Origin: an uncultured Candidatus Saccharibacteria bacterium
GTDB lineage: Bacteria > Patescibacteriota > Minisyncoccia > Phycocordibacterales > UBA918
Direction: 5' to 3'
NCBI GenBank assembly: GCA_964611205.1
Contig: CAZSZB010000003.1
Coordinates: 23,764-87,763, forward strand
DNA length: 64,000 nucleotides
Shown here: one piece after another, positions 12,179 to 46,541 of the stretch
Position numbering within the stretch: position 1 is the first letter of the stretch
How the letters are laid out: each line of letters begins with the position of its first letter
The notes under the pieces: model-generated
What the model was told of the DNA's origin: nothing
Database searches by the model: none
What the model saw: only the letters and a program-made list of their open reading frames with translations
Program-made: the position numbers and the translations under genes

Positions 12179-12180
12179 AA

Positions 12181-30711: not shown

Positions 30712-30772
30712 TTTATTGCTATTGCTACAGATACTAAAGTAATCGTCACTTGGTATCGAGCAACATAATATA

Positions 30773-31243
30773 TTAAAAACCGAAAAAATCCAGCAACTGT
30801 TGGAAGAATGGTATTTCCAAATATTCTTCTGGTAAGCGACTGGCTATAATGTCTTCTATTTCATCTACATACTCTTCTGGCAACGGCATAACAATCAAGG
30901 GCATAAACATCTTTTCGGAACGGGCTAATAGTTGGGGTCCCCAAGGATTTTCTTCATCTATATAAAAACACTCCAATGTACTATAAGGATATAATTTATC
31001 TTCGATACGCAGACCGCGTTGACTAACAGCAAAGGGAACAGTGTTGGGTTCACGAACTGCTATGATACCCATCACAATACCTGATATCAGTATGACAAAA
31101 GCAAAAAGAGAGTTACCTAACAGCAAGGCAGCTCCAGTAGCGGAGACGGTAAGAATACCCAAAGCCCAGAGCCAGTTTGCTTCCTGGGGTCCATGACTGT
31201 GTTCCAGAGCCTTCCAGGTTACTTCTTTAATGTAGTCAGACAT
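30773..31243 (-). CDS. hypothetical membrane protein
   Basis: 156-aa ORF with a central hydrophobic stretch. Confidence 0.4.
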   Translation of the reverse strand: MSDYIKEVTWKALEHSHGPQEANWLWALGILTVSATGAALLLGNSLFAFVILISGIVMGIIAVREPNTVPFAVSQRGLRIEDKLYPYSTLECFYIDEENPWGPQLLARSEKMFMPLIVMPLPEEYVDEIEDIIASRLPEEYLEIPFFQQLLDFFGF

Positions 31244-31397
31244 GGCTAAATTGTAACATGCTGTAAAAAACTTTTTACAAGCTAATTTGCTAGAAACTAC
31301 TTCTTTATTTTACGATATGCTATATTTTGTTAAATAATATGACAGAATAAGCGTTTTCTGGAAAGAAAACGCTTATTCGTTCGTCATTAGTTAATCT

Positions 31398-33191
31398 ATG
31401 TTTTTTAAACCAGCAAAAACAGAACAAACCAAAAAAGTAAATCAAGGAAACGGTACCCCAAGAACACCGTTGCGGTTTTTATGGTATACGGTAAAACCGT
31501 ATCGCTACTGGTTATTGTTGGGGGTGAGTTTGAATATCATCAATCAACTTCTTAGCGTCTATGTCGCTATATTTATTGGTAATTTAGCTGATGCGGCGGC
31601 CAAAGTGTCTGAGCCAGAGCAGTTTTTAAGTTGGGTCATCGGCTTTTTGGTATTGATTGTTTCTACCTTCATTTTTTATCGAGTGGGAGGTTTCATTACT
31701 ATACATTTTGTTCTAAAACAAAATCAGTACGCTTTTGAAACAGTCAAAGGCTATCTCTTAAAACACAGTCATACATATTATATAGATCGCTTTGCAGGAA
31801 CTTTAACTGGCAAGATATTTAATGCTGGTGACCGCAGTAGTGAGATACTGCTGATGATTAATTATGGTTTTGTTCGTTTGGTAGTTAGTTTGACAGCGAC
31901 CGGTGTTGTTATCGGCTTTTTTAGTATCAAGCTTACCCTCATATACGCCGCAATCGTTTTCTTAACTATCTTAGTGAATATTTATTTGGTCAAACGCCGT
32001 CGTCCATTAGTTGTTGATTATGCTAAAACCACTTCACGCTACCGGGGGCAATTAACAGATGTTGTCTCAAACATCCAGGCGGTGCGACAATTTTCCGCGA
32101 TAAATAGTGAATTTGATTATCTTAAACAAACTCTCAGTGAAAGAGTTTTAAAAGATCGCAAGCAATGGACAGTCGGCGAGTGGAATCATGTGGTCAACAA
32201 TATCCTCACTACGCTCCTGATGGTTCTGATGATTGGTGGAACTTATATCTTGCTCATTAACGGCTCAGTAACTTTAGGTGCGATGGTTTCGGTTATGATA
32301 CTTATGTATCGAGTATCAGGAATTATGGTTGATCTTGGTGACTGGATGAATCGAATTATAAGGATATACGGCGATGTGGAAGAAGGATTAGACGATATTT
32401 TGGTAGACCATGAGATAGTCGATGAGCCTGGGGCGGGCTTGCTTAAGGCAGAAGAGGGTAGGATTCAGTTCAATAATGTAACTTTCCAATATGGTGAGAA
32501 TTGCATTTTTAAAGATTTTAATTTAACCATCGAACCAGGACAGAGAGTTGGTTTGGTTGGTTCCTCAGGGGCTGGAAAAACTACCCTGATTTCTTTGCTG
32601 TTAAGACAACATGATATTCAAGAAGGAGAAATTAATATCGACGGACAAAATATTTCTTCAGTTACTCAGGATTCTCTACGGGAAAATATTGCGATAGTCC
32701 CGCAAGAACCCATTCTGTTTCATCGTTCGATAAGGGAAAATATTATTTATGGCAAACCAAACGCTACCGAGGAAGAAATTATTGCGGTAGCAAAAAAAGC
32801 CCAAGCCCATGATTTTATTATGCAATTATCAGAAGGCTACGATACATTGGTTGGAGAAAGAGGAGTGAAGCTTTCAGGTGGACAAAAACAACGGGTCGCA
32901 ATTGCCAGAGCTATGCTTAAAGAAGCGCCGATATTAGTATTGGATGAAGCCACTTCTGCGCTAGATAGTGAAAGCGAGGTAGCTATACAAAAGGCCCTGA
33001 GTGAATTAATGAAAGGGAAGACCGTGTTAGCGATTGCTCACCGGCTATCGACTTTGCGGGAGATGGATAGAATTCTGGTACTAGAAAGTGGAACCATTAT
33101 TGAAGATGGTACCCATAGAGAATTAGCTAAAGGTGGTTGTACCTACCAAAAACTTTGGGAGCACCAAGCGGGCGGATTTTTGCAGGAGTAG
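31398..33191 (+). CDS. ABC exporter, fused permease + ATPase (MsbA-like)
   Basis: Six-TM N-terminal half, Walker A GSSGAGKTT, signature LSGGQKQRVAIARA, and Walker B ILVLDEATSALD. Confidence 0.9.
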   Translation: MFFKPAKTEQTKKVNQGNGTPRTPLRFLWYTVKPYRYWLLLGVSLNIINQLLSVYVAIFIGNLADAAAKVSEPEQFLSWVIGFLVLIVSTFIFYRVGGFITIHFVLKQNQYAFETVKGYLLKHSHTYYIDRFAGTLTGKIFNAGDRSSEILLMINYGFVRLVVSLTATGVVIGFFSIKLTLIYAAIVFLTILVNIYLVKRRRPLVVDYAKTTSRYRGQLTDVVSNIQAVRQFSAINSEFDYLKQTLSERVLKDRKQWTVGEWNHVVNNILTTLLMVLMIGGTYILLINGSVTLGAMVSVMILMYRVSGIMVDLGDWMNRIIRIYGDVEEGLDDILVDHEIVDEPGAGLLKAEEGRIQFNNVTFQYGENCIFKDFNLTIEPGQRVGLVGSSGAGKTTLISLLLRQHDIQEGEINIDGQNISSVTQDSLRENIAIVPQEPILFHRSIRENIIYGKPNATEEEIIAVAKKAQAHDFIMQLSEGYDTLVGERGVKLSGGQKQRVAIARAMLKEAPILVLDEATSALDSESEVAIQKALSELMKGKTVLAIAHRLSTLREMDRILVLESGTIIEDGTHRELAKGGCTYQKLWEHQAGGFLQE

Positions 33192-33259
33192 TTTTTGGCT
33201 CTAGACTTTGTGAAAGAAATTAGATAGTTTAAGTTGAACAAAAAAGAAGGAGTTCTTCA

Positions 33260-33532
33260 ATGGAAGCAGAAAAAGTCCAAGAGGTCATCCAGCTTTATCG
33301 TCGCGAGTTTGAGGCGACGGGTGTTGGTAAGACCAAATATCCTCACGGAAAGTCGTTGGATCAGTCCAGTCACAGCCTCGAGCATTGCCACGCTATGCTC
33401 GATGATATGGATGAATTCCTGAAGGAAGGTAGGACTGACAAAGTCTTCCGCTGGCTCGGTTTCATACAGGGAGTTCTTTGGGCCCAAGGCCTTTACTCAC
33501 TGACCGAATTGACCGGTCACAATCGCCCTTAG
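33260..33532 (+). CDS. hypothetical protein encoded in GC-rich (about 52%) DNA
   Basis: 90-aa ORF starting where GC content jumps relative to the ABC transporter gene. A hairpin terminator lies at about 33568-33600. Confidence 0.35.
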   Translation: MEAEKVQEVIQLYRREFEATGVGKTKYPHGKSLDQSSHSLEHCHAMLDDMDEFLKEGRTDKVFRWLGFIQGVLWAQGLYSLTELTGHNRP

Positions 33533-33777
33533 TTGGGAGGAAAAGACAGAAAGACAGTAAGATTTAAGGTCGTCCGATTTATCGGACGGCCTTTCTGGTT
33601 GGAGTTAATGGAAAGGGATTGCTTTGCTTTTTCTAATTCTTTACAGGAACTGTGTAGGTTAACTAATATTTTTCCTTCGTCAAAATATTAGTTAACCTCT
33701 CGAGAAAATGTGTAAACATTTTCTCTCCCCAACCCTCCCATGCGCGCACTGAACCATCTGAAAACAGATAGTCTTCC

Positions 33778-33807
33778 AAAAAAAACCACCAGTATGCACA
33801 CTGGTGG
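33778..33807 (-). terminator. rho-independent terminator on minus strand (ccaccagtgtgcatactggtgg + T8)
   Basis: Perfect 8-bp GC-rich stem followed by eight T on the minus strand. Confidence 0.55.
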
Positions 33808-33932
33808 CATTTTCGGTTCGTGTGTTGGCTTGCGGACAAGCCTTCAGGGACGTGTCCGCTCTGCGAGCGGAAAGGAACGGTGCTGGTGCATCAGCGTGTT
33901 GGACATCCATGTCCTGAACCGACGGGCTGGGC

Positions 33933-34052
33933 TCAGACGATGGTGTCGATGGCGGCGCAGTGGCTCGGGTAGCCAGCGGCTGGGTTGTTCGCGCCATTGG
34001 TCATCAGCTCGACGGGACCGGCACGAACGGTGGTGAGTGCGAAGCGTTTCAT
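33933..34052 (-). CDS. candidate 39-aa micro-ORF in about 60% GC DNA with consensus Shine-Dalgarno
   Basis: AAGGAG sits 6 nt upstream of the ATG. Hand translation gives MKRFALTTVRAGPVELMTNGANNPAAGYPSHCAAIDTIV, followed about 120 nt downstream by the strong terminator. Confidence 0.25.
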   Translation of the reverse strand: MKRFALTTVRAGPVELMTNGANNPAAGYPSHCAAIDTIV

Positions 34053-34177
34053 CGCAGTCTCCTTGTCCGAGTGTGAAGGAAGTCACACGCTCATTGGCCA
34101 GATAATACTGACCTCTATAGCTAAAAGTAGTAGATTTTGTTTTTTTTCAAGTGAGAAGTGAAGAGAAAAGTGAAAAT

Positions 34178-34195
34178 TGGCGGAGAGGGATTCTC
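34178..34195. repeat. partial copy of tRNA-Ser 3' end (ttggcggagag..ggattc), candidate attL
   Basis: Matches 46295-46305 exactly (11 nt) plus a further 6 nt after a 4-nt gap. It has the same orientation as the tRNA gene. Confidence 0.35.
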
Positions 34196-34465
34196 TCGTT
34201 ACACGAGCAGTATACCTTTTGCATCAGATTACTTCGCAAGCTCATAATCTGACGCAAAAGCTTTCGAATCCCCACAGAAGTGACACTGAGTCACTTCTTC
34301 TCTCTCCACCAACAAAATAGCACCCCAAAAAGGGTGCTATTTTGTACTCGCGGGCTACGTGGGTTAAGTACCCACACGTTCAAGCCTTGTAAGGGTATTC
34401 TAGCGCATTTTGGGTATGCGAATCTAGGTACGTGGGTCGGGGTCTAAGAGTAGACAAAGTAGACA

Positions 34466-34912
34466 CTAATAGCGACTTCGGCGGTATCGCTTCTTTCGCC
34501 TGCCTCCAGGCTCTTTAAGGTAAACCCAGAAGCCAGTGAGATTAAGGAGTATCCCAGAGCAAAGGAAGATAAGTAAGTGAAGTGCAAGTGGCCACTTCAA
34601 GCAATAGACAAAGTTGCCGAAGATCGTGGTGAAGATGAGGAATGTCAGGGTCTGCAATCCAAGGTATGTCCCGCTTCCGACAAAGCGGTTGAATGTCGGC
34701 GAGAAGCCGTTGTCGGAATTGTAATGGGCGGTGCCGTTGCGGGTGTAAATCTCCCAAGCTACCCACCCGATCATGGCAAGAATGATCCAGACGAAATGCC
34801 ACGGCCACAGATACTTGATCGCAGTCCAGAGAAAATCGGAAAGCGAAGAAACCGCCATATCCGATACGGTTGAGCAGATTTCTCCAAATGAAAATATTGT
34901 TTGTGGATCCAT
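34466..34912 (-). CDS. hypothetical polytopic membrane protein with Arg/Lys-rich C-terminus
   Basis: 148-aa ORF, hydrophobic, in the island. Confidence 0.35.
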   Translation of the reverse strand: MDPQTIFSFGEICSTVSDMAVSSLSDFLWTAIKYLWPWHFVWIILAMIGWVAWEIYTRNGTAHYNSDNGFSPTFNRFVGSGTYLGLQTLTFLIFTTIFGNFVYCLKWPLALHLLIFLCSGILLNLTGFWVYLKEPGGRRKKRYRRSRY

Positions 34913-35308
34913 GTCTTTGACACCTCGGTTCTGGGAAATGCCCCGACCTCGGCGTTTCTTATCTTCTCGCTAATCGTCAATTTACACTATTGACACTGTG
35001 GATAAATACTTGTTTGATTTTTAATACGGAAGTGCATATAATTCACTCAGTTCTTCACAGATGAAACTACCTTCTCCCTCGGGAGAGGCAGTCCGATCGC
35101 ATAGGTCATCGACCAAAAAAAATATGCGTGAGGGTTGTCGAATGGAGTGCGTATTGAACGAATCGTTGTCGGGTCCATTGTGGCAAAAAGACAGCTGTTC
35201 GAGATCGCAGTCGAAGGCACACCAAGCATCACGCTTGCTGTTTCTTTGAGTGCGATTTTTTGTTTGTAGAAAATCAAAACTCTCCGTGCAGAACTAATTA
35301 TCAATTAT

Positions 35309-36652
35309 TTGAAATTAGTTATGACCAATCACAACCACACATTAGAAATCCAATACGTCGCAGTCGGTGACCTCAAGGAGAACGAATACAACCCGAAGAA
35401 GTTCTCAGCGGAGGCTTTGGACGGCATCAGAGAAAGCGTTACCCGTTTCGGGTTCGCAGATCCATTGGTAGTTAACAGCAACGAAGAGCGGAAAAACATT
35501 CTCATCGGAGGACATGCACGCCTCAAGATCGCCAAGGAGCTCGGCTTCGAGACCGTACCAGTCGTCTTCGTTAATCTGAGTGAAGACAAGGAAAAGGAAC
35601 TCAACCTCCGTCTCCACAGGAACCAAGGAGCGTTCGACTTGGAACTGCTCGCAAAGTTCGACGAGACGCTTCTTGCGGACATCGGATTCAACTCGGAGGA
35701 TCTCGATTCGATCTTCAACATGGACCCGACACCCGAGCACTTCGACCTCAAGAAGGAACTTGAGAAGTTGAATATCAAGGACGTGAAGGTAAAGCACGGA
35801 GACCGATACGAGATCGACGGCTCGATCCTCATGTGCGGAGACAGCACCATCGAGGAAGACATGCTCAAGCTCATGCAGGGAGCAAAAGCCGACATGGTGA
35901 TGACCGATCCTCCTTACATTCTCGACTACCTCAAGGGTAAGACGAAGAACAAGGACGGGATCACGGAAGGCTTCGGTGCGAAGAAGAACCGCGTCTATCT
36001 CGGCACCACTTCCTTGCCCGACAACTTCACCGACCTCTGGATGAACGGCGTGTCCAAGGTTCAGAAGGAGGACTTCTCGATCGTCATCTTCGAGCATCCG
36101 AAGAATCTCCGCACCATCTGGAACGCACTTGAGAAGCACTGGAAGTATCGCAACACCATCACATGGCACGTGCCAAACCGCATGCAGGGATTCGCTGGGA
36201 AGTACAAGCTTTTCAACAAGCAGGACATCGCACTTGTAGGAAGCACCGACCGAGTGATCGTTAATCTCGAGCCAGAGGATGAGCTGTTCCAGAACGAGTA
36301 CGAGAATGCCATTTATGCCACGAGCGGAAGACCGCATTGGGAAAGCTACGGCAAAGGAAAGAAGAACTGCCCGACGGACTTCATCGAGCACATCGCCGCA
36401 GACAAGAAGTCCTCTGGTCAGGACATCATATTTGGCACGAAGCCGATAGAGCTTCTCATCCCGTACATCAAGGTACTCACGAAGCGTGACGACTTGGTGC
36501 TCGAGCCGTTCGGAGGATCGGGATCAACGCTCATCGCATCGCTGAAGATCGGACGCAAGTGCCGCATCATGGAGAAGCAGCCGATCTATGCGGAGGTCAT
36601 TATCAAACGCTGGGAGAAAGCGACCGGCAAGAAGGCGGTGAAGATAGACTAG
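35309..36652 (+). CDS. ParB-like nuclease domain fused to N4/N6 DNA methyltransferase (beta-class)
   Basis: N-terminal ParB/Srx motif (ILIGGHARLKIAKELG). Motif IV VMTDPPY comes before motif I LEPFGGSGST. Confidence 0.8.
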   Translation: MKLVMTNHNHTLEIQYVAVGDLKENEYNPKKFSAEALDGIRESVTRFGFADPLVVNSNEERKNILIGGHARLKIAKELGFETVPVVFVNLSEDKEKELNLRLHRNQGAFDLELLAKFDETLLADIGFNSEDLDSIFNMDPTPEHFDLKKELEKLNIKDVKVKHGDRYEIDGSILMCGDSTIEEDMLKLMQGAKADMVMTDPPYILDYLKGKTKNKDGITEGFGAKKNRVYLGTTSLPDNFTDLWMNGVSKVQKEDFSIVIFEHPKNLRTIWNALEKHWKYRNTITWHVPNRMQGFAGKYKLFNKQDIALVGSTDRVIVNLEPEDELFQNEYENAIYATSGRPHWESYGKGKKNCPTDFIEHIAADKKSSGQDIIFGTKPIELLIPYIKVLTKRDDLVLEPFGGSGSTLIASLKIGRKCRIMEKQPIYAEVIIKRWEKATGKKAVKID

Positions 36653-36653
36653 T

Positions 36654-37229
36654 ATGGCAAAGCAGAAAGAAGCGGTCGCTACCGCACAGCTGAAGCACAA
36701 GCTCGTACAGCACCTACGGGACATCCCGATCCCGACATATGCGTGCCAGCGGGTCGGCGTTCCCAAAGCCACCTACTACAAGTGGCGGAAGACAGACCAG
36801 ATATTCCGTGAAGCGAGCGACGAGGCGATCATCACGGGAAAGCTCACACTTAATGATGTTGCTAAGTCCCAGCTCGTGAAGCTCATCAAGGAGGGAGACT
36901 ATCGCTCGATCAACTTCTGGCTGAAGCACAACGACGAGGACTTCGGATCGAAGCTCAAGCTTGAGATCGAGGACAGGACGAGAAAGTACGACCCCGAAGA
37001 ACTCAAACTCATGGCGACAGCGATGCATAATGCAGGATTGGTCGGCGTTACACTCGCTCACCAAAAGATGGCGAAGGTGTTTCAGGGATTGCAGGAAAAG
37101 GAAGAAGAGCGAGCCAACGAGAAGAACGAATACGACGAGGATGAAGAACCTGTCGTTCAGGAAAAACAGAAGCGAAAAGGCGGAGTGAAGATTGCAGAGT
37201 TTATGAAGAAGAGGAAGTCTGAGGAATAA
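36654..37229 (+). CDS. HTH DNA-binding protein, phage terminase small subunit-like
   Basis: N-terminal HTH (ACQRVGVPKATYYKWRK), and charged helices downstream. It is translationally coupled to the ParB-MTase. Confidence 0.4.
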   Translation: MAKQKEAVATAQLKHKLVQHLRDIPIPTYACQRVGVPKATYYKWRKTDQIFREASDEAIITGKLTLNDVAKSQLVKLIKEGDYRSINFWLKHNDEDFGSKLKLEIEDRTRKYDPEELKLMATAMHNAGLVGVTLAHQKMAKVFQGLQEKEEERANEKNEYDEDEEPVVQEKQKRKGGVKIAEFMKKRKSEE

Positions 37230-37659
37230 GTCGCCTCAGCACCTCTCCCGTGAGGATGCGGTGCTTCTTGAAGGCGTTGCACCGCTTGCATGCAAGCGTC
37301 AGGTTTCTCGGGTGGTTGGAGCCGAAGCTTTGTGGTTCGACTTTCACACCCGACACGCCTTTCATCTTACGAAGCTCCTTGTTCAGGACATTCGATGACA
37401 GCGGAATGATGTGGTCGGGTTCGAAGATTCCATCGTTGGTGCACTCAGGGTGAATGCTTAACTGGCATTCGCCTTTGTGCTTTTCGATGAGTTCATGCAA
37501 TACCTTCTTGCTGGTCTTGTCGAATTGCCACCGCTTGATTGCAGGATGCTGAAAATCAAAGAGATCGGAATATTCTTTGTTGAAATACTCTAGGTCTCCG
37601 TCTGCAAGCAGGTGTACGAAAAAATCCTGATCCTCAGGATTTTCAAACTGCATTCGCAA
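37201..37659 (-). CDS. HNH endonuclease
   Basis: A CxxC ... H-N-H core (EPDHIIPLS..NHPRNLTLACKRCNAFKKHR). Confidence 0.8.
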   Translation of the reverse strand: MRMQFENPEDQDFFVHLLADGDLEYFNKEYSDLFDFQHPAIKRWQFDKTSKKVLHELIEKHKGECQLSIHPECTNDGIFEPDHIIPLSSNVLNKELRKMKGVSGVKVEPQSFGSNHPRNLTLACKRCNAFKKHRILTGEVLRRLIPQTSSSS

Positions 37660-38002
37660 TGAAGATGAAAAGGACTATGGCGGTAAAGACAACTAAACCG
37701 ATGAGTACCTTTTCGCTTCGAGTATAGATTCGAGCAGGTTCTTTTTCAGCCAGAGCCTGCTCGAGTGTTTTGCCTTGGTCAGCCAAGAGCTTCTGTCCGA
37801 TTGGAGAATCCAACGGAATCAGATTGGTCGCACCACAGGCGGAGCACTTCTTGTACCTTGATGACGATCGCCACACCGAATATATGAGACCCGGAATGAT
37901 GAAGAAGCACCAGAGGATTATTTCTATTAAAAGGTTTCCCTTAACGGCAGTTTTGGAACTGCCAATATGCCCACAAGCGGAGCATATGAGTTTCTTAGAC
38001 AT
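37643..38002 (-). CDS. zinc-ribbon (2x CxxC) membrane protein
   Basis: CSACGH..CSACG pairs flank a TM helix, with a second TM at the C-terminus. It overlaps the HNH start by 17 nt. Confidence 0.4.
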   Translation of the reverse strand: MSKKLICSACGHIGSSKTAVKGNLLIEIILWCFFIIPGLIYSVWRSSSRYKKCSACGATNLIPLDSPIGQKLLADQGKTLEQALAEKEPARIYTRSEKVLIGLVVFTAIVLFIFIANAV

Positions 38003-38227
38003 GTTTTTTGGACGGTTTTCATGACGCTAATAATTCTGGTAGGTAGCAAAAATCTCCTAACCAGGGCTGATATATCCCGTGAGATATACCCATACCCCTT
38101 TCGGGATATGACCGTCCAAAGTGGCCTCTGATTAGGAGGTTTTTACTTTGGACGGAATTTGCGACCATATCCTAGAAAACCAAGGGTTCTTTAGGGGTTA
38201 GGTCGACTGTATTCAGTTGTATGTACA

Positions 38228-38250
38228 TGATACCAAAATTGATGGTATCA
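38228..38250. promoter_or_regulatory. palindrome tgatacca-N7-tggtatca upstream of the putative restriction endonuclease gene
   Basis: 8-bp perfect arms, about 80 bp upstream of the 38330 start. Confidence 0.3.
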
Positions 38251-38329
38251 GTCAGTACCTTAGCTTAGTTATTGGGTCTTGCGAAGGGCTTCATAAAGGC
38301 TTGATAAATTGCTAGAATGAGGCGTAACC

Positions 38330-39397
38330 ATGGCAGTATCCGCTCAAAAAGTAAGCAAGTATGTCGATTCCATTTCCAAGAGCGGTCTTAGCATCTATGA
38401 CCCTATTGAAGTCGGAGATCCAAATCTTTGGATACCTTCAGGAGAACTGGAGGTTATTTTGAATGAGGCTTTAAAAGGTCTCTCCCTTACAGGTCTGCCC
38501 CTAAGAACACGATCAAAAGTTGTGAAGCAGAAAGTATGCTCTGCTTTGGGCTATCCTGTGCCAAATAGTTTTGAGAAAACACAGCCACGTTTCCCAGGAC
38601 AGTGCTTCGATACTTATATTCAGAAATCAAACAACTTGCAGATTTGGAACGAAGAACTTTCATCAACCCGACGATACGTAACGATCAAAGTAACCGACGA
38701 AGACGTGGTTGAAGTTGTACGTGTCGTAACTGGAGACACTCTTGCTGTACTTGATACAACAGGCACCCTCACTCAGAAATACCAAGCTCGACTTACAGTC
38801 GGTGATAATGTGTCAGAACTTGTATCTGCGGAGGATACTGACCGAATCGTTGCGATAATCGAATCTGCAAACGGTGATCAAAAGCTTGGTGATCCCACAG
38901 ATCATGTATCAGCTGAAAACATTCTTCCTATCGAAGATGTATTTGAAAAACTTAAGACAATAATCGGAAAGTCTTTTGCTGACGCTGGTTCTGATCAAGA
39001 AAGGAATCGAGGTGGACTACTCCACAAACTAGTGTGTCATGCATTGGGTTATGAAATACATCGAGACAACGGACAGTTTCCTGATGTACCGAATCAATTA
39101 CTTGAAGTAAAGCTTCAAACTTCTCCAACTATTGATCTTGGCTTGGTTACACCCGACAGTAAGGACGCATTGGATACGCCTAAAATCAACGGGAAGCAGA
39201 TACGTCACTGCGACGTTCGCTATGCAATCTTTTATGCCAACATCGAGAACGGACAAATTAATGTCACCAACCTTTTTCTATCAACAGGAAAAGATTTCTT
39301 TAGTCGTTTCCCTCGCTTTGAAGGAAAGGTACTTAATAAGAAAATTCAGATACCCCTTCCGTCAGATTTTTTCACCTATAAGCCGAAGGCTGAATAG
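38330..39397 (+). CDS. putative type II restriction endonuclease (PD-(D/E)xK-like)
   Basis: Convergent and overlapping by 22 bp with the N6-adenine MTase gene. It has a candidate catalytic HRDNGQFPDVPNQLLEVKLQT segment (D..EVK). Confidence 0.45.
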   Translation: MAVSAQKVSKYVDSISKSGLSIYDPIEVGDPNLWIPSGELEVILNEALKGLSLTGLPLRTRSKVVKQKVCSALGYPVPNSFEKTQPRFPGQCFDTYIQKSNNLQIWNEELSSTRRYVTIKVTDEDVVEVVRVVTGDTLAVLDTTGTLTQKYQARLTVGDNVSELVSAEDTDRIVAIIESANGDQKLGDPTDHVSAENILPIEDVFEKLKTIIGKSFADAGSDQERNRGGLLHKLVCHALGYEIHRDNGQFPDVPNQLLEVKLQTSPTIDLGLVTPDSKDALDTPKINGKQIRHCDVRYAIFYANIENGQINVTNLFLSTGKDFFSRFPRFEGKVLNKKIQIPLPSDFFTYKPKAE

Positions 39398-41070
39398 ACA
39401 AGTTTGTTTAGCTTCTCCTCCTGAGAATCAAATTCAGCATCTACAGGCAACTCGTAGATTGATTTAGTTAAGTTGATGATCTCTTTTGCTATCTTTGATT
39501 TTGGATCAGGCAATGGAAACTTCTCAACGTATTGAGTAATAAAGCGTCTTCGTCCCGAGTAGAGTTTATTGTTGAAACTGTGGTCGTAGAACTCCTCGAC
39601 AAACTTTGAGTTTGCAATTGCCAAAGCGAGCCACAGCAATTCGGAATTATCTTCTTCTGAAGTTAACCAGTAGCAGTCTCCATTCACCACACCGCCTGTT
39701 TGATCCATCCAAAAGATTGGTTGTTCAGAAATATCTCTGAAGACTAACTTGGGCTTCTCCCAAGTCTTTGGATTATGAGGAACCCAGATCTCGTACCAGT
39801 TACGTCCTGAATCAATCACGTAACTTCTCGATGAGAGCTGATCTTTGTGTTCTTCAAGATACCTTTTTACGTTGGGATACTGATCAAGATCAATGGGCTT
39901 CTTTTTGTTGCCGATTTCCTCATGTGTGTAAACAACATGCTTCTTTGCTGAATCTGTTTTGTATCTTCTTGCGACGTGATGAGTAATCAGTGGCTTTAGA
40001 GTTTCAGGTAGGTTTCCATTAAATTTAGAAATGTCGGATACGATAAAAACATTGTCAGCAGTCGTTTTGATACCAACTTTTACCTTGCCAATATCCCCAA
40101 ATAAAAGTTGAGTCTTTTCTTTAACTTTCTTCAACCACAGGTCTGCTTTGTCATGAGCAAGCCTCCATGTGTCGCCGATCTTATTGCCAATATCAAGCTT
40201 GCCGTGCAGTACTTTAAAATGTTCCGATTCCTCTCCTTCGAGTGATTGAAAGACTTGTTGTGGATCAATCTTTGTATTCTTTCCCGAAAGATATATTGAT
40301 GTGAATCTAGGGTCAGCATCCTTTGATGTCTCTTTTTGCAAAAGCAGAACAGCTGGAAGCACTGCCGCTTCAAACAAGCGTGTATCTCCTAAATCCCATA
40401 CATGTAGAACACTAAAATCATTTAGGAGATTCTTTCGAACAGCTTCGCCTGATTTAGTGGTAAGAAAGCGATTGGAAACAATGATACCTACTACACCTTC
40501 TGGCTTAAGAAGTTTCTCAATTCCTTTTAGGAAAGCGTGATACAGATCAACTCGACCTGAGAGATTAAAATCTTCCGCAAGCTTTTGAGCCTTTTCAGCA
40601 CCCATGACTTGAGTTCTGACATAAGGCGGATTCGCAATAACAAGATCAAAGAGTGGAACATCTGTTTTTGAAAACAAAGAACCTCCATAAGTTTCAGAGA
40701 CCCATTCTAAGAAATCCTGAGTTTTAATATCAGCCTTAACTTCAGGGAAATCCTTCTTGATTAGATCCAGAGAAGCATCAACTGCATCTTGATTAATATC
40801 GAAACCGAATACTTCGATTTTATTGAATCCGCGCGAGTAGGCTATCTGTATAAGATTACGCAGAAGCTCCCCGTCACCAACAGCAGGATCAATTACTTTT
40901 AGTGTTTTGGTTTTCTTTAAATTCTTTTTCTCAACTTGATCAAAGATTTGAGATGCCACAAAGCCAGCCAAAGAAGTTGGGGTGTAATGAGCCCCTGTAT
41001 TCTTTCTTAATCCAGCATCGAGTTGTGCATCTAAAGTTGGCATTTGTAAACCTATTTTAACATTTTTCAA
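39376..41070 (-). CDS. N6-adenine DNA methyltransferase, gamma-class (Eco57I/TaqI-like) with C-terminal target-recognition half
   Basis: A TGAHYTP segment, motif I VIDPAVGDGELL and motif IV VIANPPY. 564 aa. Confidence 0.85.
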   Translation of the reverse strand: MKNVKIGLQMPTLDAQLDAGLRKNTGAHYTPTSLAGFVASQIFDQVEKKNLKKTKTLKVIDPAVGDGELLRNLIQIAYSRGFNKIEVFGFDINQDAVDASLDLIKKDFPEVKADIKTQDFLEWVSETYGGSLFSKTDVPLFDLVIANPPYVRTQVMGAEKAQKLAEDFNLSGRVDLYHAFLKGIEKLLKPEGVVGIIVSNRFLTTKSGEAVRKNLLNDFSVLHVWDLGDTRLFEAAVLPAVLLLQKETSKDADPRFTSIYLSGKNTKIDPQQVFQSLEGEESEHFKVLHGKLDIGNKIGDTWRLAHDKADLWLKKVKEKTQLLFGDIGKVKVGIKTTADNVFIVSDISKFNGNLPETLKPLITHHVARRYKTDSAKKHVVYTHEEIGNKKKPIDLDQYPNVKRYLEEHKDQLSSRSYVIDSGRNWYEIWVPHNPKTWEKPKLVFRDISEQPIFWMDQTGGVVNGDCYWLTSEEDNSELLWLALAIANSKFVEEFYDHSFNNKLYSGRRRFITQYVEKFPLPDPKSKIAKEIINLTKSIYELPVDAEFDSQEEKLNKLVYSAFGL

Positions 41071-41111
41071 GATCGCTTGATACCTTAGCTTAGACCTGAA
41101 AAATTGTGTAA

Positions 41112-41507
41112 TTGGTTACCAGATTGACCCTTTGCAGACCTCTGGACTTATTTGCAGTTCAGCGTCATTCCTTGGGTGTGGATGAAGATATCGAGGCAAT
41201 TATTGATGCGAGTAAGCATTTCAAATACCACGAGGAGCGTGGGATGACCCTCTTTAATCGCGTCTCTCATCTACCCGAATCAAAGCGACACATGAAGATG
41301 GCAATTAAGGAACGCATACTCTTCTTGGCAGGTGCTTATATATCTCTTGCGTCATTCATTGATGATGACCTCGTGGATTTCTTAGAGAACGCTGACAATG
41401 AATCAGATAAAGAAAAAATAAAGAGAATTTATAGCGATGTAATCAAACAGATGGATACTCTACGTAAGGAGATGGAAGAATTCAAAATCATAGACTTACC
41501 AACCTAA
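41112..41507 (+). CDS. hypothetical protein upstream of the recombinase (true start probably internal)
   Basis: ORF with a charged helical C-terminus. Confidence 0.3.
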   Translation: MVTRLTLCRPLDLFAVQRHSLGVDEDIEAIIDASKHFKYHEERGMTLFNRVSHLPESKRHMKMAIKERILFLAGAYISLASFIDDDLVDFLENADNESDKEKIKRIYSDVIKQMDTLRKEMEEFKIIDLPT

Positions 41508-41541
41508 GGGTACTTAGGACGCTCTGGACTCTTCAAAGGGA

Positions 41542-42882
41542 TTGCGTCATTCATTGGGTTGTATGAATAACGCAATATCAATGCCGTACGGGACAACGGT
41601 ACAAGAGCAAGTCCCTGTAAAGGTGAAGTACTGCCTTTATGCGAGAAAGTCGACAGAATCGGAGGAGCGACAAGTGCTGTCCATAGATAGCCAGATCAAG
41701 GAGATGCTCCAGCTCGCGGATCGAGAATGTTTAGAGATTGTGGAGATGAAGCGAGAGTCACACTCTGCAAAAGAGACAGGTCAGCGACCAGTCTTCAATG
41801 AAATAATCGAGGAGATACGAGAAGGAAAATACAACGGTATCCTGACATGGGCACCAGACCGTATTTCAAGAAACGCAGGTGACCTTGGAAGGATTGTAGA
41901 CCTGATGGATTCGGGCAAGCTTGAGGAAATACGAACTTTTGGTCAGAAGTTCGGCAACAATCCAAACGAGAAGTTTCTCCTGATGATTCTGGGGTCACAA
42001 GCAAAGCTTGAGAACGACAATCGAGGAATCAACGTGAAGCGAGGTCTGCGAACGAGAGCGGAGATGGGGCTATGGTCAGGCATGCCTCCTCTCGGGTACG
42101 TGACGCAGGGACTAATGGAAAAGAAATGTCAGGTAGCGGTAGATCCGCTACGAGCACCAACAGTGAAGAAGATGTTTGAGAAAGTTGCATACGAACAATG
42201 GTCTGGGCGAAAGGTATACAACTGGCTGAGGTTTGAGCTGAACTTCTACACCAGAGGAAACAAACCACTCACTCTCGGAGGTGTGTATCGCATATTAGAA
42301 AACCCTTTCTACTATGGAGTGTTCGAGAGACCAAAGAAGAGCGGAAACTGGTATCAAGGAAAGCACACGCCACTCATCACGCAGGAACTGTTCGAGAAAG
42401 CAAAGGCACAGCTTAAGCGTGACCAGATAGTGCGAGAGACGAAGGAGTTCGCATTCACTAAGCTCTTCACCTGCGGGTACTGCGGAAGCGGGATATCCGC
42501 CGAAGAGAAATGGAAACAGCTCAAGGATGGCGGCGTGAACAGATACATCTACTACTCCTGTGCCAGATCAAGAGACCGCAACTGCAAGAACATGTACATA
42601 CGAGAAGAAGATTTGATACTCGAACTACTGAAAATACTCGACAAAGTGAACATCAACGAGCTTGGCATGCGAAAGAAACTGGAGGATGAGATTGCGAGGT
42701 TCAATATATTCCAAAGGTCGGTACTCGGCGCCAAAGAAAAGATAAAGACGGATGCAGAGACAGATATCAGGAACTATGCGAAGTACATCCTAAAAGAAGG
42801 GTCTACTACTGAAAAACGAGAGCTATTGGCTAACCTGAGATCACGAATTGAATACAAAGATAAGAACCTAAGGCTCGTCTAG
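41542..42882 (+). CDS. large serine recombinase (resolvase catalytic domain + recombinase domain + zinc ribbon)
   Basis: YARKSTESEERQ catalytic Ser motif, a recombinase domain, and CGYCGS..YYSC zinc-ribbon cysteines. Confidence 0.85.
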   Translation: MRHSLGCMNNAISMPYGTTVQEQVPVKVKYCLYARKSTESEERQVLSIDSQIKEMLQLADRECLEIVEMKRESHSAKETGQRPVFNEIIEEIREGKYNGILTWAPDRISRNAGDLGRIVDLMDSGKLEEIRTFGQKFGNNPNEKFLLMILGSQAKLENDNRGINVKRGLRTRAEMGLWSGMPPLGYVTQGLMEKKCQVAVDPLRAPTVKKMFEKVAYEQWSGRKVYNWLRFELNFYTRGNKPLTLGGVYRILENPFYYGVFERPKKSGNWYQGKHTPLITQELFEKAKAQLKRDQIVRETKEFAFTKLFTCGYCGSGISAEEKWKQLKDGGVNRYIYYSCARSRDRNCKNMYIREEDLILELLKILDKVNINELGMRKKLEDEIARFNIFQRSVLGAKEKIKTDAETDIRNYAKYILKEGSTTEKRELLANLRSRIEYKDKNLRLV

Positions 42883-42962
42883 ACAGAATAGATGGGTTGT
42901 TGCAAAAGTGTTAAAATAGAGGCGTAACATGAAATCCAAATTTCACCTTACGAGAACATTGC

Positions 42963-45900
42963 ATGAGCCCAAATACCGCTCCACAACCAAACACGCTCAT
43001 TCTCCCAATCTTAGAATTGGGGCCTATTAGGCATGATCTCGGACAGATAAGGCATGTTTTGGATCTTGGCGGGAGCAAAGAGATAGTATCAACAGAAGAT
43101 TTCAATACTTCGCCTAGAGTTGTAGAAAAGCTACACGTACTCTCTGACGGACAAAGAGTATTGGTAACAAAGAAAAAGAAACTCCAGCTACCTGTCGATG
43201 TGGACGGAGTGCTTCATCGTAACGAAGAAGGAGAACTAAAGTGGGTTGCTCATAGAAAACTGGAAGCGATAGAACAGGATATTGCTCGAGACGGGATAGA
43301 AAGTGTCGCATCTGAAATAGCTGAAAGCTGGTCTGGGAAATTTAACTTTCGTGCAGAAGAGCGAGATGCTTCAGGAAACATCACTAAGGCAGGACTGAGA
43401 CCTCCACAAATCGGTGGACTTCATGCGATTGGTGCTCACTGGAGTCTCTACCAGCAACCTGCGACGGTTGTAATGCCCACTGGTACAGGAAAGACAGAAA
43501 CGATGTTGGCAACTCTCGTGGCATATTCACCAGGTAGCTTGCTTGTAGTGGTTCCCTCAAAAGTACTTCGGGATCAAACCGCAAGAAAATTTCTAACGTT
43601 AGGATTGCTTCGTTCTCTCGGTAATATTTCTCCAGAAACAAAAAATCCAATTGTTGGAGTAATCAAAAAGAGACCTCAGTCAGAACAAGATCTGGATATT
43701 TTTGATAAATGCAATGTCGTTATTGCAACCATGAGTGCCATGGGTGGCGAAGCATCCGATGACATATCCCTTCCTGTTGCCGACCATGCCAAAACACTGA
43801 TCGTCGACGAAGCACATCACATTGGAGCAAATGGATGGAGTGCTTTTCGAGAAAAATTTAAGGAAAACAAGGTTTTACAATTTACAGCAACCCCCTATCG
43901 AAGAGACGGAAAGCTTGTCGATGGAAAGGTTATTTATGAGTATCCTCTACACTCAGCCCAGAAAGACGGATATTTCAAAAATATCAACTTCGAGCCCGTA
44001 TATGAGATTGATCAAGAAGATGCGGATGAAGCAATAGCCACAAAGGCAGTAGAAGTGCTCAGAAGCGATATTGAGTCTGGAATGGACCATCTCATGATGG
44101 CAAGATGTGTGAGCATTGGTCGGGCAAGGACAATACATGCTATTTACAGCAGGATCGCTCCTGACCTGAACCCTGTTCTAATACATTCAGAGGCTGACGA
44201 AGCCGATGCTTCTATTGAGCTCATAAAATCTCGTGGAAGTCGTATTGCAGTTTGCGTAAATATGCTCGGAGAAGGTTTTGATTTGCCTCAACTTAAAATT
44301 GCAGCTGTCCACGATGCTCATAAAAGCCTTGCTATCCTTTTGCAATTTACGGGTAGATTCACTCGAAGTTCAGGAGAAGCAATTGGTGATGCGACTGTCG
44401 TGGCAAATATCGCAGATCAGGATGTCTCCTCATCGCTTGAACGTCTTTACAGTGAGGATGCGGATTGGAATCAATTGTTAAGTGAATTTAGCTCCGAAGC
44501 AGCAAAAGCCCATTCAGAGCTTATTGCCTTTTTGAATTCATCCGAAAGGCTTGATGACCCAGAAGATGAAGAGAAGATCGAAATATCCCACCATCTATTT
44601 CGCCCTACCTTCAGCACACTAATGTACGAAGCAGATTCTTTCACTCCTAAAAAATTCATCGAAGGAATTCCCAAAGGAACGACTGTGCACAATGTCTGGA
44701 TTCACGAAGAATCCAAAACCCTCTATTTTGTAACAAGACTAGAACCATCCATTCGTTGGACAAGATCACGCAAACTAAAGGATAGGACATGGGATTTGCA
44801 CGTTTTTCATTATGACGAAGCGCGCCACATGTTGTTCGTGTCCTCGAGTGACAAGTCCTCAGCGCATGAAAAAATTGCCAAGGCCATTGGTGCCACACGA
44901 CTCATTTCTGGTGACGTTATTTTCCGAGCACTAGGACGAATCAATAGACTTATCTTTCAGAACGTGGGAGTAACCAAGCATGGCCGTCGAAACCTGAGGT
45001 ATGCAATGTATACAGGTTCTGATGTTGCTACAGCGTTGAGTGTGTCTGAACGAGCTGGTTCAGTTAAATCAAACCTAAGTGGTACTGGTTGGGAAAATGG
45101 TGAACCTGTCACAATCGGATGCTCCTACAAAGGACGTGTGTGGGCTAGAGATCCTGGATCAATACCTGAACTCGTAAAATGGTGTGAAGCTGTTGGCGAT
45201 AAAATTAAAGATGAAGGAATAGACACGGCAGATATTATTGCCAACGTTCTTATCCCCGAAGAAGTAACAGCATTGCCAGATAAACAGGTACTCAGCATTG
45301 AGTGGCCTCTGGAAATTATCAGACAGTCGGAAGAAAGAGTGGTTATCAAGAAAGGAGCTGTTGAGAGATCAATTTCAATGTTTGATCTTCAATTCGTTAA
45401 AACTGATCTGGTAACCAGTCAGGTTGAATTTAATCTTGTCACAGATCCTGAGGAGGTTTGGGCAAAATTAGTTCTGACAGTGGGTGGCGATGACGGATTC
45501 AAAGTCACAAAAAGCACAAGAGAAGCTGTAACAATTCGTGTTGGGAATTTGGAACTTCCAATCGAGGAGTATTTTTCAAATTACCCTCCGATGATTCGCT
45601 TCATAGATATTTCTGAGCTTGACGGCAACTTACTCATTAAGCCGCAAAACACTCAAGACCTTGTGTTTCCTGAAGAAAGTTTTGAGGTCTGGGACTGGGA
45701 AGGAGTCGACATGCAAAAGGAGTCTATTTGGAAAGGTGGTAATGAACGTCAGGACTCAATCCAATGGAAAGCGGCTCAGCAGTTTATTGCTGGAAACTTC
45801 GATGTGGTCTTTGATGATGACAGTGCGGGAGAAGCTGCTGATCTTGTCTGTTTTAAGGAAGAAGATGATCATATACGGTTAGCTTTGGTGCATTGTAAAT

Positions 45901-46256
45901 TCACAAAAGGTACAACCGCAGGTGAGCGAGTAAGTGACGTTGTGGAAGTTTCATCTCAAGCGGTTCGATCAGCAAAATGGAAATGGAAATTTAAAGATTT
46001 GTGCCGACACGTTCTTGAAAGAGAGAAGAGGCTTTCTGGTGGTCGCACAACTAGATTCCTCAAAGGAATTGGATCAGATATGAATAGGTTCGTGAAGTTG
46101 AGCAGATTCAAGGAAATTAGACCAGAGATCATTATCGTTCAACCTGGCTTATCAAAGGCTAATCACACGGCAGATCAGACAGCCGTATTAGCAGCAGCTC
46201 ATAGCTATCTCAAGGAGACAGTCGGAGTTGATCTTGATGTTATTTGTAGCGAATAA
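42963..46256 (+). CDS. 1097-aa SF2 (DEAH / ResIII-type) helicase with roughly 600-aa C-terminal extension carrying a possible degenerate nuclease-like motif
   Basis: Q-like motif LRPPQ, Walker A MPTGTGKTET, DEAH box LIVDEAHH and motif VI QFTGRFTR. The C-terminal segment FDVVFDDD..ADLVCFK..ALVHCKFT is PD-(D/E)xK-like but not canonical. Confidence 0.8.
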   Translation: MSPNTAPQPNTLILPILELGPIRHDLGQIRHVLDLGGSKEIVSTEDFNTSPRVVEKLHVLSDGQRVLVTKKKKLQLPVDVDGVLHRNEEGELKWVAHRKLEAIEQDIARDGIESVASEIAESWSGKFNFRAEERDASGNITKAGLRPPQIGGLHAIGAHWSLYQQPATVVMPTGTGKTETMLATLVAYSPGSLLVVVPSKVLRDQTARKFLTLGLLRSLGNISPETKNPIVGVIKKRPQSEQDLDIFDKCNVVIATMSAMGGEASDDISLPVADHAKTLIVDEAHHIGANGWSAFREKFKENKVLQFTATPYRRDGKLVDGKVIYEYPLHSAQKDGYFKNINFEPVYEIDQEDADEAIATKAVEVLRSDIESGMDHLMMARCVSIGRARTIHAIYSRIAPDLNPVLIHSEADEADASIELIKSRGSRIAVCVNMLGEGFDLPQLKIAAVHDAHKSLAILLQFTGRFTRSSGEAIGDATVVANIADQDVSSSLERLYSEDADWNQLLSEFSSEAAKAHSELIAFLNSSERLDDPEDEEKIEISHHLFRPTFSTLMYEADSFTPKKFIEGIPKGTTVHNVWIHEESKTLYFVTRLEPSIRWTRSRKLKDRTWDLHVFHYDEARHMLFVSSSDKSSAHEKIAKAIGATRLISGDVIFRALGRINRLIFQNVGVTKHGRRNLRYAMYTGSDVATALSVSERAGSVKSNLSGTGWENGEPVTIGCSYKGRVWARDPGSIPELVKWCEAVGDKIKDEGIDTADIIANVLIPEEVTALPDKQVLSIEWPLEIIRQSEERVVIKKGAVERSISMFDLQFVKTDLVTSQVEFNLVTDPEEVWAKLVLTVGGDDGFKVTKSTREAVTIRVGNLELPIEEYFSNYPPMIRFIDISELDGNLLIKPQNTQDLVFPEESFEVWDWEGVDMQKESIWKGGNERQDSIQWKAAQQFIAGNFDVVFDDDSAGEAADLVCFKEEDDHIRLALVHCKFTKGTTAGERVSDVVEVSSQAVRSAKWKWKFKDLCRHVLEREKRLSGGRTTRFLKGIGSDMNRFVKLSRFKEIRPEIIIVQPGLSKANHTADQTAVLAAAHSYLKETVGVDLDVICSE

Positions 46257-46295
46257 CCCGAGCCCCATTCAAGGGTACTCGGGTCACTCCGATAC

Positions 46296-46385
46296 TTAGT
46301 TCTCTTGGCGGAGAGAGAGGGATTCGAACCCTCGGTACGCGTAAACGTACAACGGTTTTCAAGACCGCCGCCTTCAACCACTCAG
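46296..46385 (-). tRNA. tRNA-Ser (anticodon TGA), long variable arm, CCA encoded
   Basis: Hand-folded: GGAGAGA acceptor, GCTGAGTGGTTGAAGGC D-arm, anticodon loop CUUGAAA, long extra arm, and a GGTTCGAATCC T-loop. Confidence 0.9.
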
Positions 46386-46541
46386 CCATCTCTCCAGATA
46401 TTAAATTGTTGCGGTAAACGATTGTTATCAGTTCAACCAGCTTACCACCGCATGCTTAATCCTTGATAAGGATTGTGACCAGGATATTACCAGAAAAAAA
46501 GCTTTTTTCCAACTATATTTTCATCGTGTTATGATTATCGA

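Follow-up and report, generated by a model that had tools for sequence, protein, structure and literature searches.

Phage-inducible chromosomal islands (PICIs) and Staphylococcus aureus pathogenicity islands (SaPIs) are att-flanked satellites of 10–15 kb. They occupy a conserved chromosomal site, encode their own tyrosine integrase and a homolog of the small terminase subunit (TerS), carry accessory cargo, and are devoid of genes for the large terminase subunit (TerL) and the capsid. Their gene complement also includes a master regulator of the Stl/AlpA type, a primase-replicase with an origin, and capsid-size genes. The virion-encapsidated integrative mobile elements (VEIMEs) of marine bacteria are satellites with serine recombinases, TerS homologs, HNH endonucleases, and restriction-modification (R-M) genes, and have been physically found in virions (PMC9618062). 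The Vibrio phage-inducible chromosomal island-like element (PLE) integrates by means of a large serine recombinase (PMC6002521). Neither phage satellites nor islands resembling the one described here were found for bacteria of the candidate phyla radiation (CPR) in the literature searched. The 64,000-nucleotide stretch analyzed here, referred to as the window, belongs to an uncultured Candidatus Saccharibacteria bacterium (positions 23,764–87,763 of contig CAZSZB010000003.1, assembly GCA_964611205.1). It contains an 11,954-bp island inserted at a tRNA-Ser gene, which is best read as a satellite-like defense island.

By analogy of gene content, the island is most like satellites of the PICI, VEIME, or PLE type. 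It shares with PICIs the discrete, att-flanked insertion of corresponding size at a conserved chromosomal site, an integrase of its own, a TerS homolog, accessory cargo, and the absence of terL, portal, and capsid genes. By contrast, its integrase is a large serine recombinase; domain scans of the island open reading frames (ORFs) detected no Stl/AlpA-type master regulator, primase-replicase with an origin, or capsid-size gene; and it has a ParB-methyltransferase (ParB-MTase) gene coupled to terS, a gene slot led by the structured RNA LOOT, and a CPR host. VEIMEs and PLE are likewise small satellites, some of them with serine recombinases, TerS homologs, HNH genes, and R-M or abortive infection cargo. 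However, their particles or transduction have been demonstrated, whereas the island is known from its genes alone; the gene families differ, and LOOT and the ParB-MTase/TerS operon have not been reported there. The coupled ParB-MTase/terS operon, the LOOT-gated slot, and siblings with a whole terminase and no capsids are unreported for all three kinds of satellite. The island also resembles the staphylococcal cassette chromosome (SCC) in being a serine-recombinase element at the 3′ end of a conserved gene, with short flanking repeats and R-M or helicase cargo. However, it targets tRNA-Ser and not rlmH, and has a single recombinase gene, whose nearest NCBIfam model, CcrB (2.6e-34), is matched with 118.8 bits, far under the cut-off of 900. 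SCC elements are not known to have a terminase module or LOOT.

The original prediction had singled out four ORFs, encoding a ParB-nuclease/methyltransferase fusion, a TerS-like helix-turn-helix (HTH) protein, an HNH endonuclease, and a zinc-ribbon membrane protein, as a packaging-like module of a satellite-type element or a prophage remnant. The four genes are real, as shown by domain matches and by ratios of nonsynonymous to synonymous substitution rates (dN/dS) of 0.05–0.14 relative to orthologs in other loci; judged from these sequence comparisons, all of them are under purifying selection. They do not form a free-standing cluster but are the backbone of a small integrative mobile element. 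The satellite-type interpretation is thus retained as the best reading, and the remnant is rejected for the reasons given below. The prediction did not include the LOOT RNA, which immediately precedes the two minus-strand genes, the gene for a serine recombinase 3.5 kb further right, or the discrete nature of the insertion.

Insertion of the island at a tRNA-Ser gene

The boundaries of the island have been determined from an empty site. Logan contig L031, from another sample, corresponds to window positions 30679–34353 with 99.6% identity and then continues straight into 46308–46337. Because 34353 is joined directly to 46308, the island spans 34354–46307. A core of 4 bp is too short to yield a spurious join in an assembly graph built with k = 31, and the junction in L031 is therefore real. 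A second Logan contig, L001, assembled from one sample, is 100% identical to window positions 34416–46304 and ends one base short of the tRNA. The homology of related elements to the island begins exactly at 34347–34350, and the GC content of the left island end is 0.48–0.54, compared with about 0.39 in the flanks. The route to the empty site from the right flank was uninformative, as all RuvX contigs break within the tRNA.

The tetranucleotide GCGG is present in one copy at each occupied junction and as a single copy in the empty site. The sequence of the empty site is TTTTGTACTC-GCGG-AGAGAGAGGG, that of the occupied left junction is ACTC-GCGG-GCTACG, and the predicted attP junction is …GATACTTAGTTCTCTTG-GCGG-GCTACGTGGGTTAAGTAC…. 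The crossover is located at the discriminator/CCA position of tRNA-Ser(UGA), and the occupied gene reads …TCTCTCC-G-CCA. No long direct repeats were found at the island ends, and the 4-bp length of the core fits a serine recombinase. The island recombinase contains Resolvase (1.2e-18), Recombinase (5.6e-13), and Zn_ribbon_recom (1.8e-08) domains, has a dN/dS of 0.02, and its orthologs flank the cargo in nearly all related loci. The island thus has the features of a large-serine-recombinase element, that is, these three domains and 4-bp identity across attL, attR, and the empty site. It is almost certain that it is a site-specific element with a serine recombinase, inserted at tRNA-Ser.

The non-coding ends are the best-kept parts of the island. 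The left arm is more conserved than the genes adjoining it in comparisons with the related loci L002, L005, and L016, and presumably constitutes the recombinase-binding half of attP. At the right end, a 41-nt stretch is 100% identical to positions 18566–18606 of L002, where it is located at a different tRNA-Ser (GCU) with a different neighbor gene; the copy in L006 has four mismatches in 34 nt. Within positions 3480–18600 of L002 there are two serine recombinase genes, and the conserved left arm recurs in full at 8091; two elements are therefore arranged in tandem at tRNA-Ser(GCU). The ends of the right-hand one are identical to those of the window island.

A 16-nt tRNA-like repeat at 34178–34193 was considered as attL and ruled out, because L031 sets the junction at 34353/34354 and places the tRNA-like fragments outside the island. 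Two such fragments, inverted and similar to the 3′ end of tRNA-Ser (TGGCGGAGAGGGATTC … TTCGAATCCCC…TCTCTCTCCACCA), occupy positions 34178–34300 just left of the island. They adjoin the presumed terminator hairpin of the tRNA (34312–34345), are called by neither ARAGORN nor Rfam, and are probably relics of earlier integrations.

The ParB-MTase/TerS operon

The ParB-MTase matches ParB_N with 42.2 bits and N6_N4_Mtase with 66.9 bits, both above the Pfam cut-offs, phrog_498 at 5e-74, and the type II methyltransferase models of PADLOC. The methyltransferase and ParB N-terminal parts of the predicted fusion are therefore borne out; of ParB only the N-terminal domain is recognized, which leaves the predicted nuclease putative. 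Gene callers place the start of the gene at an ATG at 35321, and its dN/dS is 0.05–0.09. The start codon of the TerS-like gene lies 1 nt past the ParB-MTase stop codon.

The product of the TerS-like gene (dN/dS 0.11–0.14) has, when searched alone, a sub-threshold match to PF13022 (24.1 bits; cut-off 27.9) and weak matches, at about 1e-4, to three PHROG families named "terminase small subunit". Its close relatives number 23 among 5.8 billion proteins, and those in named genomes are from Paceibacterota, Saccharibacteria, and Parcubacteria metagenome-assembled genomes (MAGs). A search with a family profile yielded 2370 relatives. Among the best 148 of these, 135 match phrog_4044 and 125 match phrog_309, both labeled small terminase, and 137 match PF13022, "HTH of insertion element transposase". 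A match to a transposase HTH had been proposed as grounds for refuting the TerS assignment; given that the same proteins match both kinds of family, the outcome is ambiguous, but by name only. The sole match in a GenBank phage is a 152-residue ORF of Riemerella phage vB_RanS_PJN03 (ON245412), with 37% identity over 104 residues. It overlaps terL, behind which comes the portal gene, and upstream of it are two genes with ParB_N and one for a PAPS reductase. Phage and island thus share the succession of ParB_N gene(s) and a homologous HTH/TerS gene; however, in the phage terL and the portal gene come directly next, whereas in the island the next gene is that of the convergent HNH endonuclease.

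The HTH protein is very probably a small-terminase homolog, because the pair of ParB-MTase and HTH genes directly precedes terL in dozens of IMG/VR contigs. Its relatives thereby uphold the predicted TerS-like identity, and the pair corresponds to a phage-type, packaging-proximal module. The window terS is not itself located directly upstream of a terL gene, as its homologs are in most IMG/VR loci and in PJN03.

The operon is preceded by a promoter-like motif, TTGATT-17-TATAAT (35014–35042), and by a structured leader at about 35043–35308. The RNAalifold structure of the leader, calculated from eight loci, contains 57 pairs, 14 of which have compensatory changes. Its 3′ end is a long hairpin with G·U pairs followed by U6, which looks like a terminator or attenuator, and an upstream repeat, GAGTGCG, that copies part of the 3′ strand of this hairpin could be an antiterminator. 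The leader has no Rfam match at E ≤ 1. It is kept in the closer clade (nine loci), and blastn and motif searches did not find it outside that clade. It is a candidate new attenuator RNA, and its structure suggests that the terminase-module operon is conditionally expressed.

Relatives with a complete terminase

A scan of IMG/VR with remote members of the TerS family gave 182 relatives, from which 80 loci were kept. The ORF upstream of TerS is a ParB-MTase homolog in 55 of 64 cases, and is 59–72% identical to the island ParB-MTase in the six loci that were compared. Downstream, TerS is overlapped by an ORF of about 500 residues with large-terminase domains; those of L081 and L090 match solved TerL structures. 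The order ParB-MTase, TerS, TerL, serine recombinase is present in 29 loci. The gap between the terL and recombinase genes is 10 nt to 3.5 kb, and there is therefore no room for a structural module. In L074, the one locus checked for neighbors, the adjoining genes encode HsdR and an OLD nuclease, and no structural genes are present. In L081, a variant of the left arm, with 24 of 30 bases including the GCGG core, is located 600 nt upstream of the ParB-MTase gene. Many of the "viral" IMG/VR contigs are thus islands of the same family that encode a full terminase without a capsid module, and the window island is a terL-less member.

Six of the terL-bearing relatives (L044, L045, L050, L053, L066, and L079) have two tandem terL paralogs. 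Four contigs of 32.5–55 kb contain the ParB-MTase/TerS module twice, about 25–30 kb apart (L056/L071, L061/L091, L070/L083, and L088/L089), which suggests tandem accretion of islands.

The predicted lack of a large terminase, portal, and capsid holds for the whole window. Domain scans detected none of these genes in the 64 kb, tblastn of the window with five TerL and one portal query gave nothing better than E = 0.026, and the twenty largest other ORFs are housekeeping or type IV secretion system (T4SS) genes.

Conserved backbone and exchangeable cargo

Every related locus with enough sequence has the same backbone: the ParB-MTase gene followed by the HTH gene, the large serine recombinase, and a short LOOT-led operon on the opposite strand. 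The genes between and beside these parts differ from locus to locus. In the window, adjoining endonuclease and methyltransferase genes form a complete type II R-M system carried as cargo, and the 1097-residue helicase-domain protein is replaced in L002 by the product of an unrelated 823-residue gene. Cargo elsewhere includes type I, II, and III-like R-M systems, a KAP NTPase with Mrr, an SMC-like ATPase, Hachiman (HamA and helicase), an HpaII R-M system with Vsr and a Cap4-type nuclease, and PIN and AAA proteins. The remote metagenome relatives that were sampled (P0040, P0074, and P0145) adjoin ParB-MTase and defense-type genes, with a recombinase in two of the three loci. The leftmost backbone gene of the window island encodes a 148-residue membrane protein that had no family match in domain, PHROG, defense, and NCBIfam scans.

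Interpretation of the four noted genes themselves as a defense system was rejected, as PADLOC gave only generic methyltransferase models and a marginal PtuB-like match of the HNH protein.

The LOOT-led operon and a putative translational switch

The original prediction regarded the opposite-strand pair of HNH and membrane-protein genes as atypical. The arrangement is confirmed, and is explained by an accessory operon led by LOOT (Rfam RF03000). LOOT is located 66 nt upstream of the membrane-protein gene on the same strand; its score of 73.4 bits exceeds the Rfam gathering score of 46.4, and the match covers the full model (positions 1–121) with every helix present. The motif CTAAGCTAAGGTACTGAC in its promoter region is conserved across loci. 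LOOT is present in nearly all related loci with enough sequence, invariably upstream of a short operon on the same strand, and a covariance model of our own found it in 12 IMG/VR loci, terL-bearing ones included. Rfam lists LOOT as a metagenome-derived "sRNA" without function, whereas in the present loci it is in every case an operon's 5′ leader, and all these operons belong to a single family of mobile elements. The literature searched yielded no paper on what LOOT does.

The spacer of the promoter-like site at 38227–38255, and of the homologous sites, contains a short inverted repeat (GATACCATCAATTTTGGTATC), the sequence of which shifts between loci while its palindromy is kept. It may be an operator.

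The first gene of the window operon encodes a membrane protein in which a hydrophobic helix separates the two CxxC pairs of the zinc ribbon, and which matches Pmp3 (24.3 bits; cut-off 22.9). Its orthologs are present in L002, L005, L006, L011, L013, and L018, and absent where LOOT heads the HNH gene directly. The HNH protein matches PF01844 with 22.5 bits (cut-off 21.4), and its gene convergently overlaps the 3′ end of the TerS-like gene. In other loci, LOOT is followed by a Pmp3-like gene and then HNH, by HNH alone, or by genes for VRR-NUC-like or PD-(D/E)xK-like proteins, OB-fold membrane proteins, or short membrane peptides. The HNH gene had been considered a partner in packaging. However, of the 19 relatives without terL 12 have it, compared with none of the 69 with terL; tblastn of 50,697 GenBank phage records gave no homolog; and in relatives the position behind LOOT is filled by a different nuclease or a small membrane protein. 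This distribution could be functional in origin or simply a matter of lineage and sampling. The genes for HNH and for the zinc-ribbon membrane protein fill a variable, LOOT-headed accessory slot and probably do not serve in packaging. No cos-like repeats were found at 36600–37300 either: a search of 34900–38400 gave short repeats at chance level, except for the LOOT hairpin and its downstream copy.

In the Paceibacterota MAG locus L005, the HNH gene is split in two ORFs (3874–4466, minus strand) and the other backbone genes are intact; the split is either a frameshift or a sequencing error. The idea that LOOT and HNH form an RNA-guided nuclease was dropped, because LOOT also precedes genes other than HNH. 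Its sole support was a 23-residue match of the HNH motif to the IscB model, with 21 bits against a cut-off of 175.

The LOOT leader extends past the Rfam model by an additional hairpin and a repeat near the start codon. In every locus examined, a segment of 8–15 nt that ends 0–10 nt ahead of the start codon is a copy of the 5′ arm in the long central hairpin of LOOT. The 3′ arm of the hairpin, located at 38112–38122 in the window, therefore has two possible pairing partners, the 5′ arm and the start-codon region. This three-way relation is kept in 19 loci by about ten different sequences, for example, CCGTCCAAA, CCGCTACAG, CGCGATCAAC, CCCACCACAG, and CCCGCTAGAG, and also CCTAGTAG, CGTAGGACA, CCTATCCTACAA, CCTACGCGAA, and TCCACAGCGA. 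The two alternative duplexes are nearly isoenergetic (−18.2 and −16.3 kcal/mol in the window), and, for each of the 11 loci tested, the duplex with the start-codon region outranks those of all 200 shuffled sequences. A second co-varying complementarity connects the A-rich linker and inner hairpin to a segment just 3′ of the Rfam model. The fold of the 220-nt leader, which runs from 38204 to 37985, has a z-score of −5.0, and the start region is open in the minimum-energy structure. These calculations make it reasonably likely that LOOT is a cis-acting translational switch.

Proposed life cycle and alternative explanations

By analogy with PICI/SaPI-type satellites, the backbone can be arranged into a hypothetical life cycle. 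The recombinase would excise and integrate the island. A signal from outside would switch on the ParB-MTase/TerS operon behind its attenuator-like leader. TerS would bind island DNA and recruit TerL supplied in trans by a helper phage or a terL-bearing sibling element, and the DNA would then enter borrowed capsids in the manner of PICI/SaPI-type satellites, a scheme that VEIMEs and PLEs match as well. The ParB-MTase would methylate the DNA of the element and so protect it in new hosts. The LOOT leader would restrain the translation of potentially toxic effectors, here the membrane protein and the HNH nuclease, by means of two mutually exclusive helices, one of which would pair with 10–12 nt abutting the start codon. 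The type II R-M system and the helicase would be cargo that benefits the host. Packaging by a terminase acting in trans, in borrowed capsids, is a plausible but tentative proposal, which falls a little short of being probable.

Several points weigh against this life cycle. No helper phage has been identified, and encapsidation of the island is hypothetical. The master regulator, primase-replicase, and capsid-size genes of PICIs were not found in it. Neither the close TerS family nor the pattern of the predicted attP junction was found in IMG/VR, and the terL census is biased, because IMG/VR is enriched for contigs with terminase genes. The "TerS" labels of PHROG are annotations and not tests. 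The island TerS is 32–42% identical to the TerS of terL-bearing relatives, compared with 59–72% for the ParB-MTase, and TerS proteins of terL-less islands are 186–204 residues long, as opposed to 124–170 in terL-bearing relatives; the longer charged tail and the divergence may indicate a changed function. The switch assigned to LOOT is likewise a product of computation.

It is possible, although we consider it doubtful, that the island is mobile but that its TerS has been exapted. The ParB-MTase and HTH protein would then be an entry-protection or regulatory unit, in which the HTH protein acts as a DNA-targeting partner or controller of the methyltransferase or as a regulator of excision, and the island would spread by natural transformation or by mobilization through the T4SS-like system of the host. 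The divergence and length of the terL-less TerS and the two absences from IMG/VR are in line with this explanation, as are the constant coupling of the HTH gene to ParB-MTase (by a 1-nt spacer or an overlap), the recombinase gene directly downstream of the pair in several loci, the lack of a replication module in the backbone, and the T4SS-like and type IV pilus genes of the host. However, a relaxase or oriT-like feature was not found. With terL encoded by the other members of the family, the purifying selection on terS (dN/dS 0.11–0.14) is indicative of packaging, and ParB-type genes are positioned directly upstream of terS in a real phage as well (PJN03). In addition, the known directionality factors for recombination by serine integrases work through protein contacts and do not resemble TerS.

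It is improbable that ParB-MTase and HNH form an R-M-like addiction module, in which the methyltransferase protects, HNH kills cells that lose the island, LOOT delays the nuclease, and the HTH protein is the controller. HNH is a known fold of restriction enzymes, the ParB-MTase matches type II methyltransferase models, the two occur together in 12 loci, and LOOT would provide tight control of a potentially toxic gene. However, 69 terL-bearing relatives, and several without terL, have kept the ParB-MTase but have no HNH. Free exchange of the gene that follows LOOT would not be tolerated by a cognate restriction enzyme, and complete R-M systems are already among the cargo of the islands.

A decaying prophage remnant, left from a packaging region after deletion of terL and the structural genes, is highly improbable: although the gene set is like that just upstream of a phage terL, and the terL-bearing relatives make deletion of terL a plausible origin, the island is intact and precisely inserted with conserved ends, is absent from a 99.6%-identical strain that has the empty site, recurs with the same terL-less architecture in at least 19 loci of three CPR groups, is conserved across MAGs of Saccharibacteria, Paceibacterota, and Parcubacteria, and has backbone genes under purifying selection (dN/dS 0.02–0.14) with no pseudogenes in the window copy.

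Features of the island and its surroundings

Table 1 Coordinates of the island, its parts, and its integration target in the window
Feature	Position	Strand	Basis
Whole integrative island, 11,954 bp	34354..46307		Empty-site contig L031, start of homology, Logan contig L001, GC
Left GCGG crossover core (attL)	34350..34353		Empty-site and occupied junction sequences
Non-coding left arm, conserved	34350..34468		93–96% identity to L002 8091–8205, L005 975–1104, L016 345–399
148-aa membrane protein, backbone	34466..34912	-	Orthologs in L005, L006, L007
Promoter-like site and structured leader (~270 nt) of the ParB-MTase/TerS operon	35014..35308	+	Promoter motif, RNAalifold
ParB N-terminal domain/N6-N4 DNA methyltransferase fusion	35309..36652	+	Pfam, PHROG, PADLOC
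Small-terminase (TerS) homolog (very probable), 191 aa	36654..37229	+	Family profile, IMG/VR neighborhoods, phage match
HNH endonuclease, second gene of the LOOT-led operon	37201..37659	-	Pfam and PHROG HNH matches
Zinc-ribbon/Pmp3-like membrane protein, first gene of the LOOT-led operon	37643..38002	-	Pmp3 match, orthologs
5′ leader RNA with LOOT (38069–38204), further hairpin, and arm repeat (38007–38016)	38003..38204	-	Rfam, repeat conservation
Promoter-like site CTGACT-17-TG-TATCAT, ~20 nt upstream of LOOT	38227..38255	-	Motif
Type II restriction endonuclease, cargo	38330..39397	+	PADLOC REase_II 1.9e-151
Type II N6-adenine methyltransferase (Eco57I/TaqI_C type), cargo	39376..41070	-	MTase_II 2.1e-193
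Small ORF upstream of the recombinase	41112..41507	+	Not conserved in other loci
Large serine recombinase, island integrase	41542..42882	+	Resolvase, Recombinase, Zn_ribbon_recom domains
ResIII/DEAD helicase-domain protein, 1097 aa, cargo	42963..46256	+	Not conserved between islands
Right arm and right GCGG core 46308–46311 (attR)	46272..46311		Match to L002 and L006
tRNA-Ser(UGA), integration target	46306..46395	-	tRNA call, empty-site junction

The remainder of the window is ordinary chromosome. Its genes include dnaA, dnaN, polA, ruvAB, and tyrS, one for a penicillin-binding protein, others for type IV pili, and those of a T4SS-like cluster. The cluster encodes a TraG/VirB4-type P-loop ATPase and a T4SS pilin (3385–9171 and 10796–13605) and adjoins dnaA and dnaN. 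An AT-rich stretch near these two genes (GC 0.29–0.32, 12–14 kb) is probably the replication origin region.

Two small ORFs precede the island. A 39-residue ORF at 33933–34052 on the minus strand (MKRFALTTVRAGPVELMTNGANNPAAGYPSHCAAIDTIV) has a strong AAGGAG ribosome-binding site, a GC content of about 60%, and a terminator at 33785–33808. Its occurrence in the empty-site contig places it beyond the island boundary, and its product could be a small secreted or modified peptide. A 90-residue protein encoded at 33260–33532 on the plus strand matches phrog_7775 (1.4e-10). It is located in a GC-rich stretch (33200–34350) between an ABC transporter gene and the island, which may be a remnant of another mobile element.

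Implications for gene exchange in CPR bacteria

Almost nothing is known about gene exchange and phage resistance in the tiny, host-dependent bacteria of the CPR. The locus offers an exactly bounded and recently mobile island with a defined attB, an inferred attP, a recombinase, and a cargo slot, and ties it to a large family of elements that have terminase genes and lack capsid genes. For LOOT, an orphan Rfam family, the locus supplies a genomic context and a role that can be tested, and it draws attention to another structured leader that has no annotation. A serine recombinase with short, well-defined sites may also be of practical use.

The satellite-like defense island and the LOOT switch can be joined into one reading, in which the islands are an undescribed and widespread family of capsid-less CPR "terminase islands" and LOOT is a new class of translational switch; that the two hold together is unlikely. 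If they did, satellites with a backbone of ParB-MTase, TerS, an optional TerL, a LOOT-led slot, and a serine recombinase would ferry interchangeable defense systems between cells inside stolen capsids. The terL-less members would depend on the terminase of a helper phage or a sibling island, which is a form of nested parasitism. LOOT would gate a hot-swappable effector, a nuclease or membrane toxin, by competing for the sequence abutting its start codon. If the islands are satellites, they would be the first described for this part of the bacterial tree, within the literature searched, and would explain the movement of R-M, Hachiman, OLD, and other defense systems among CPR lineages.

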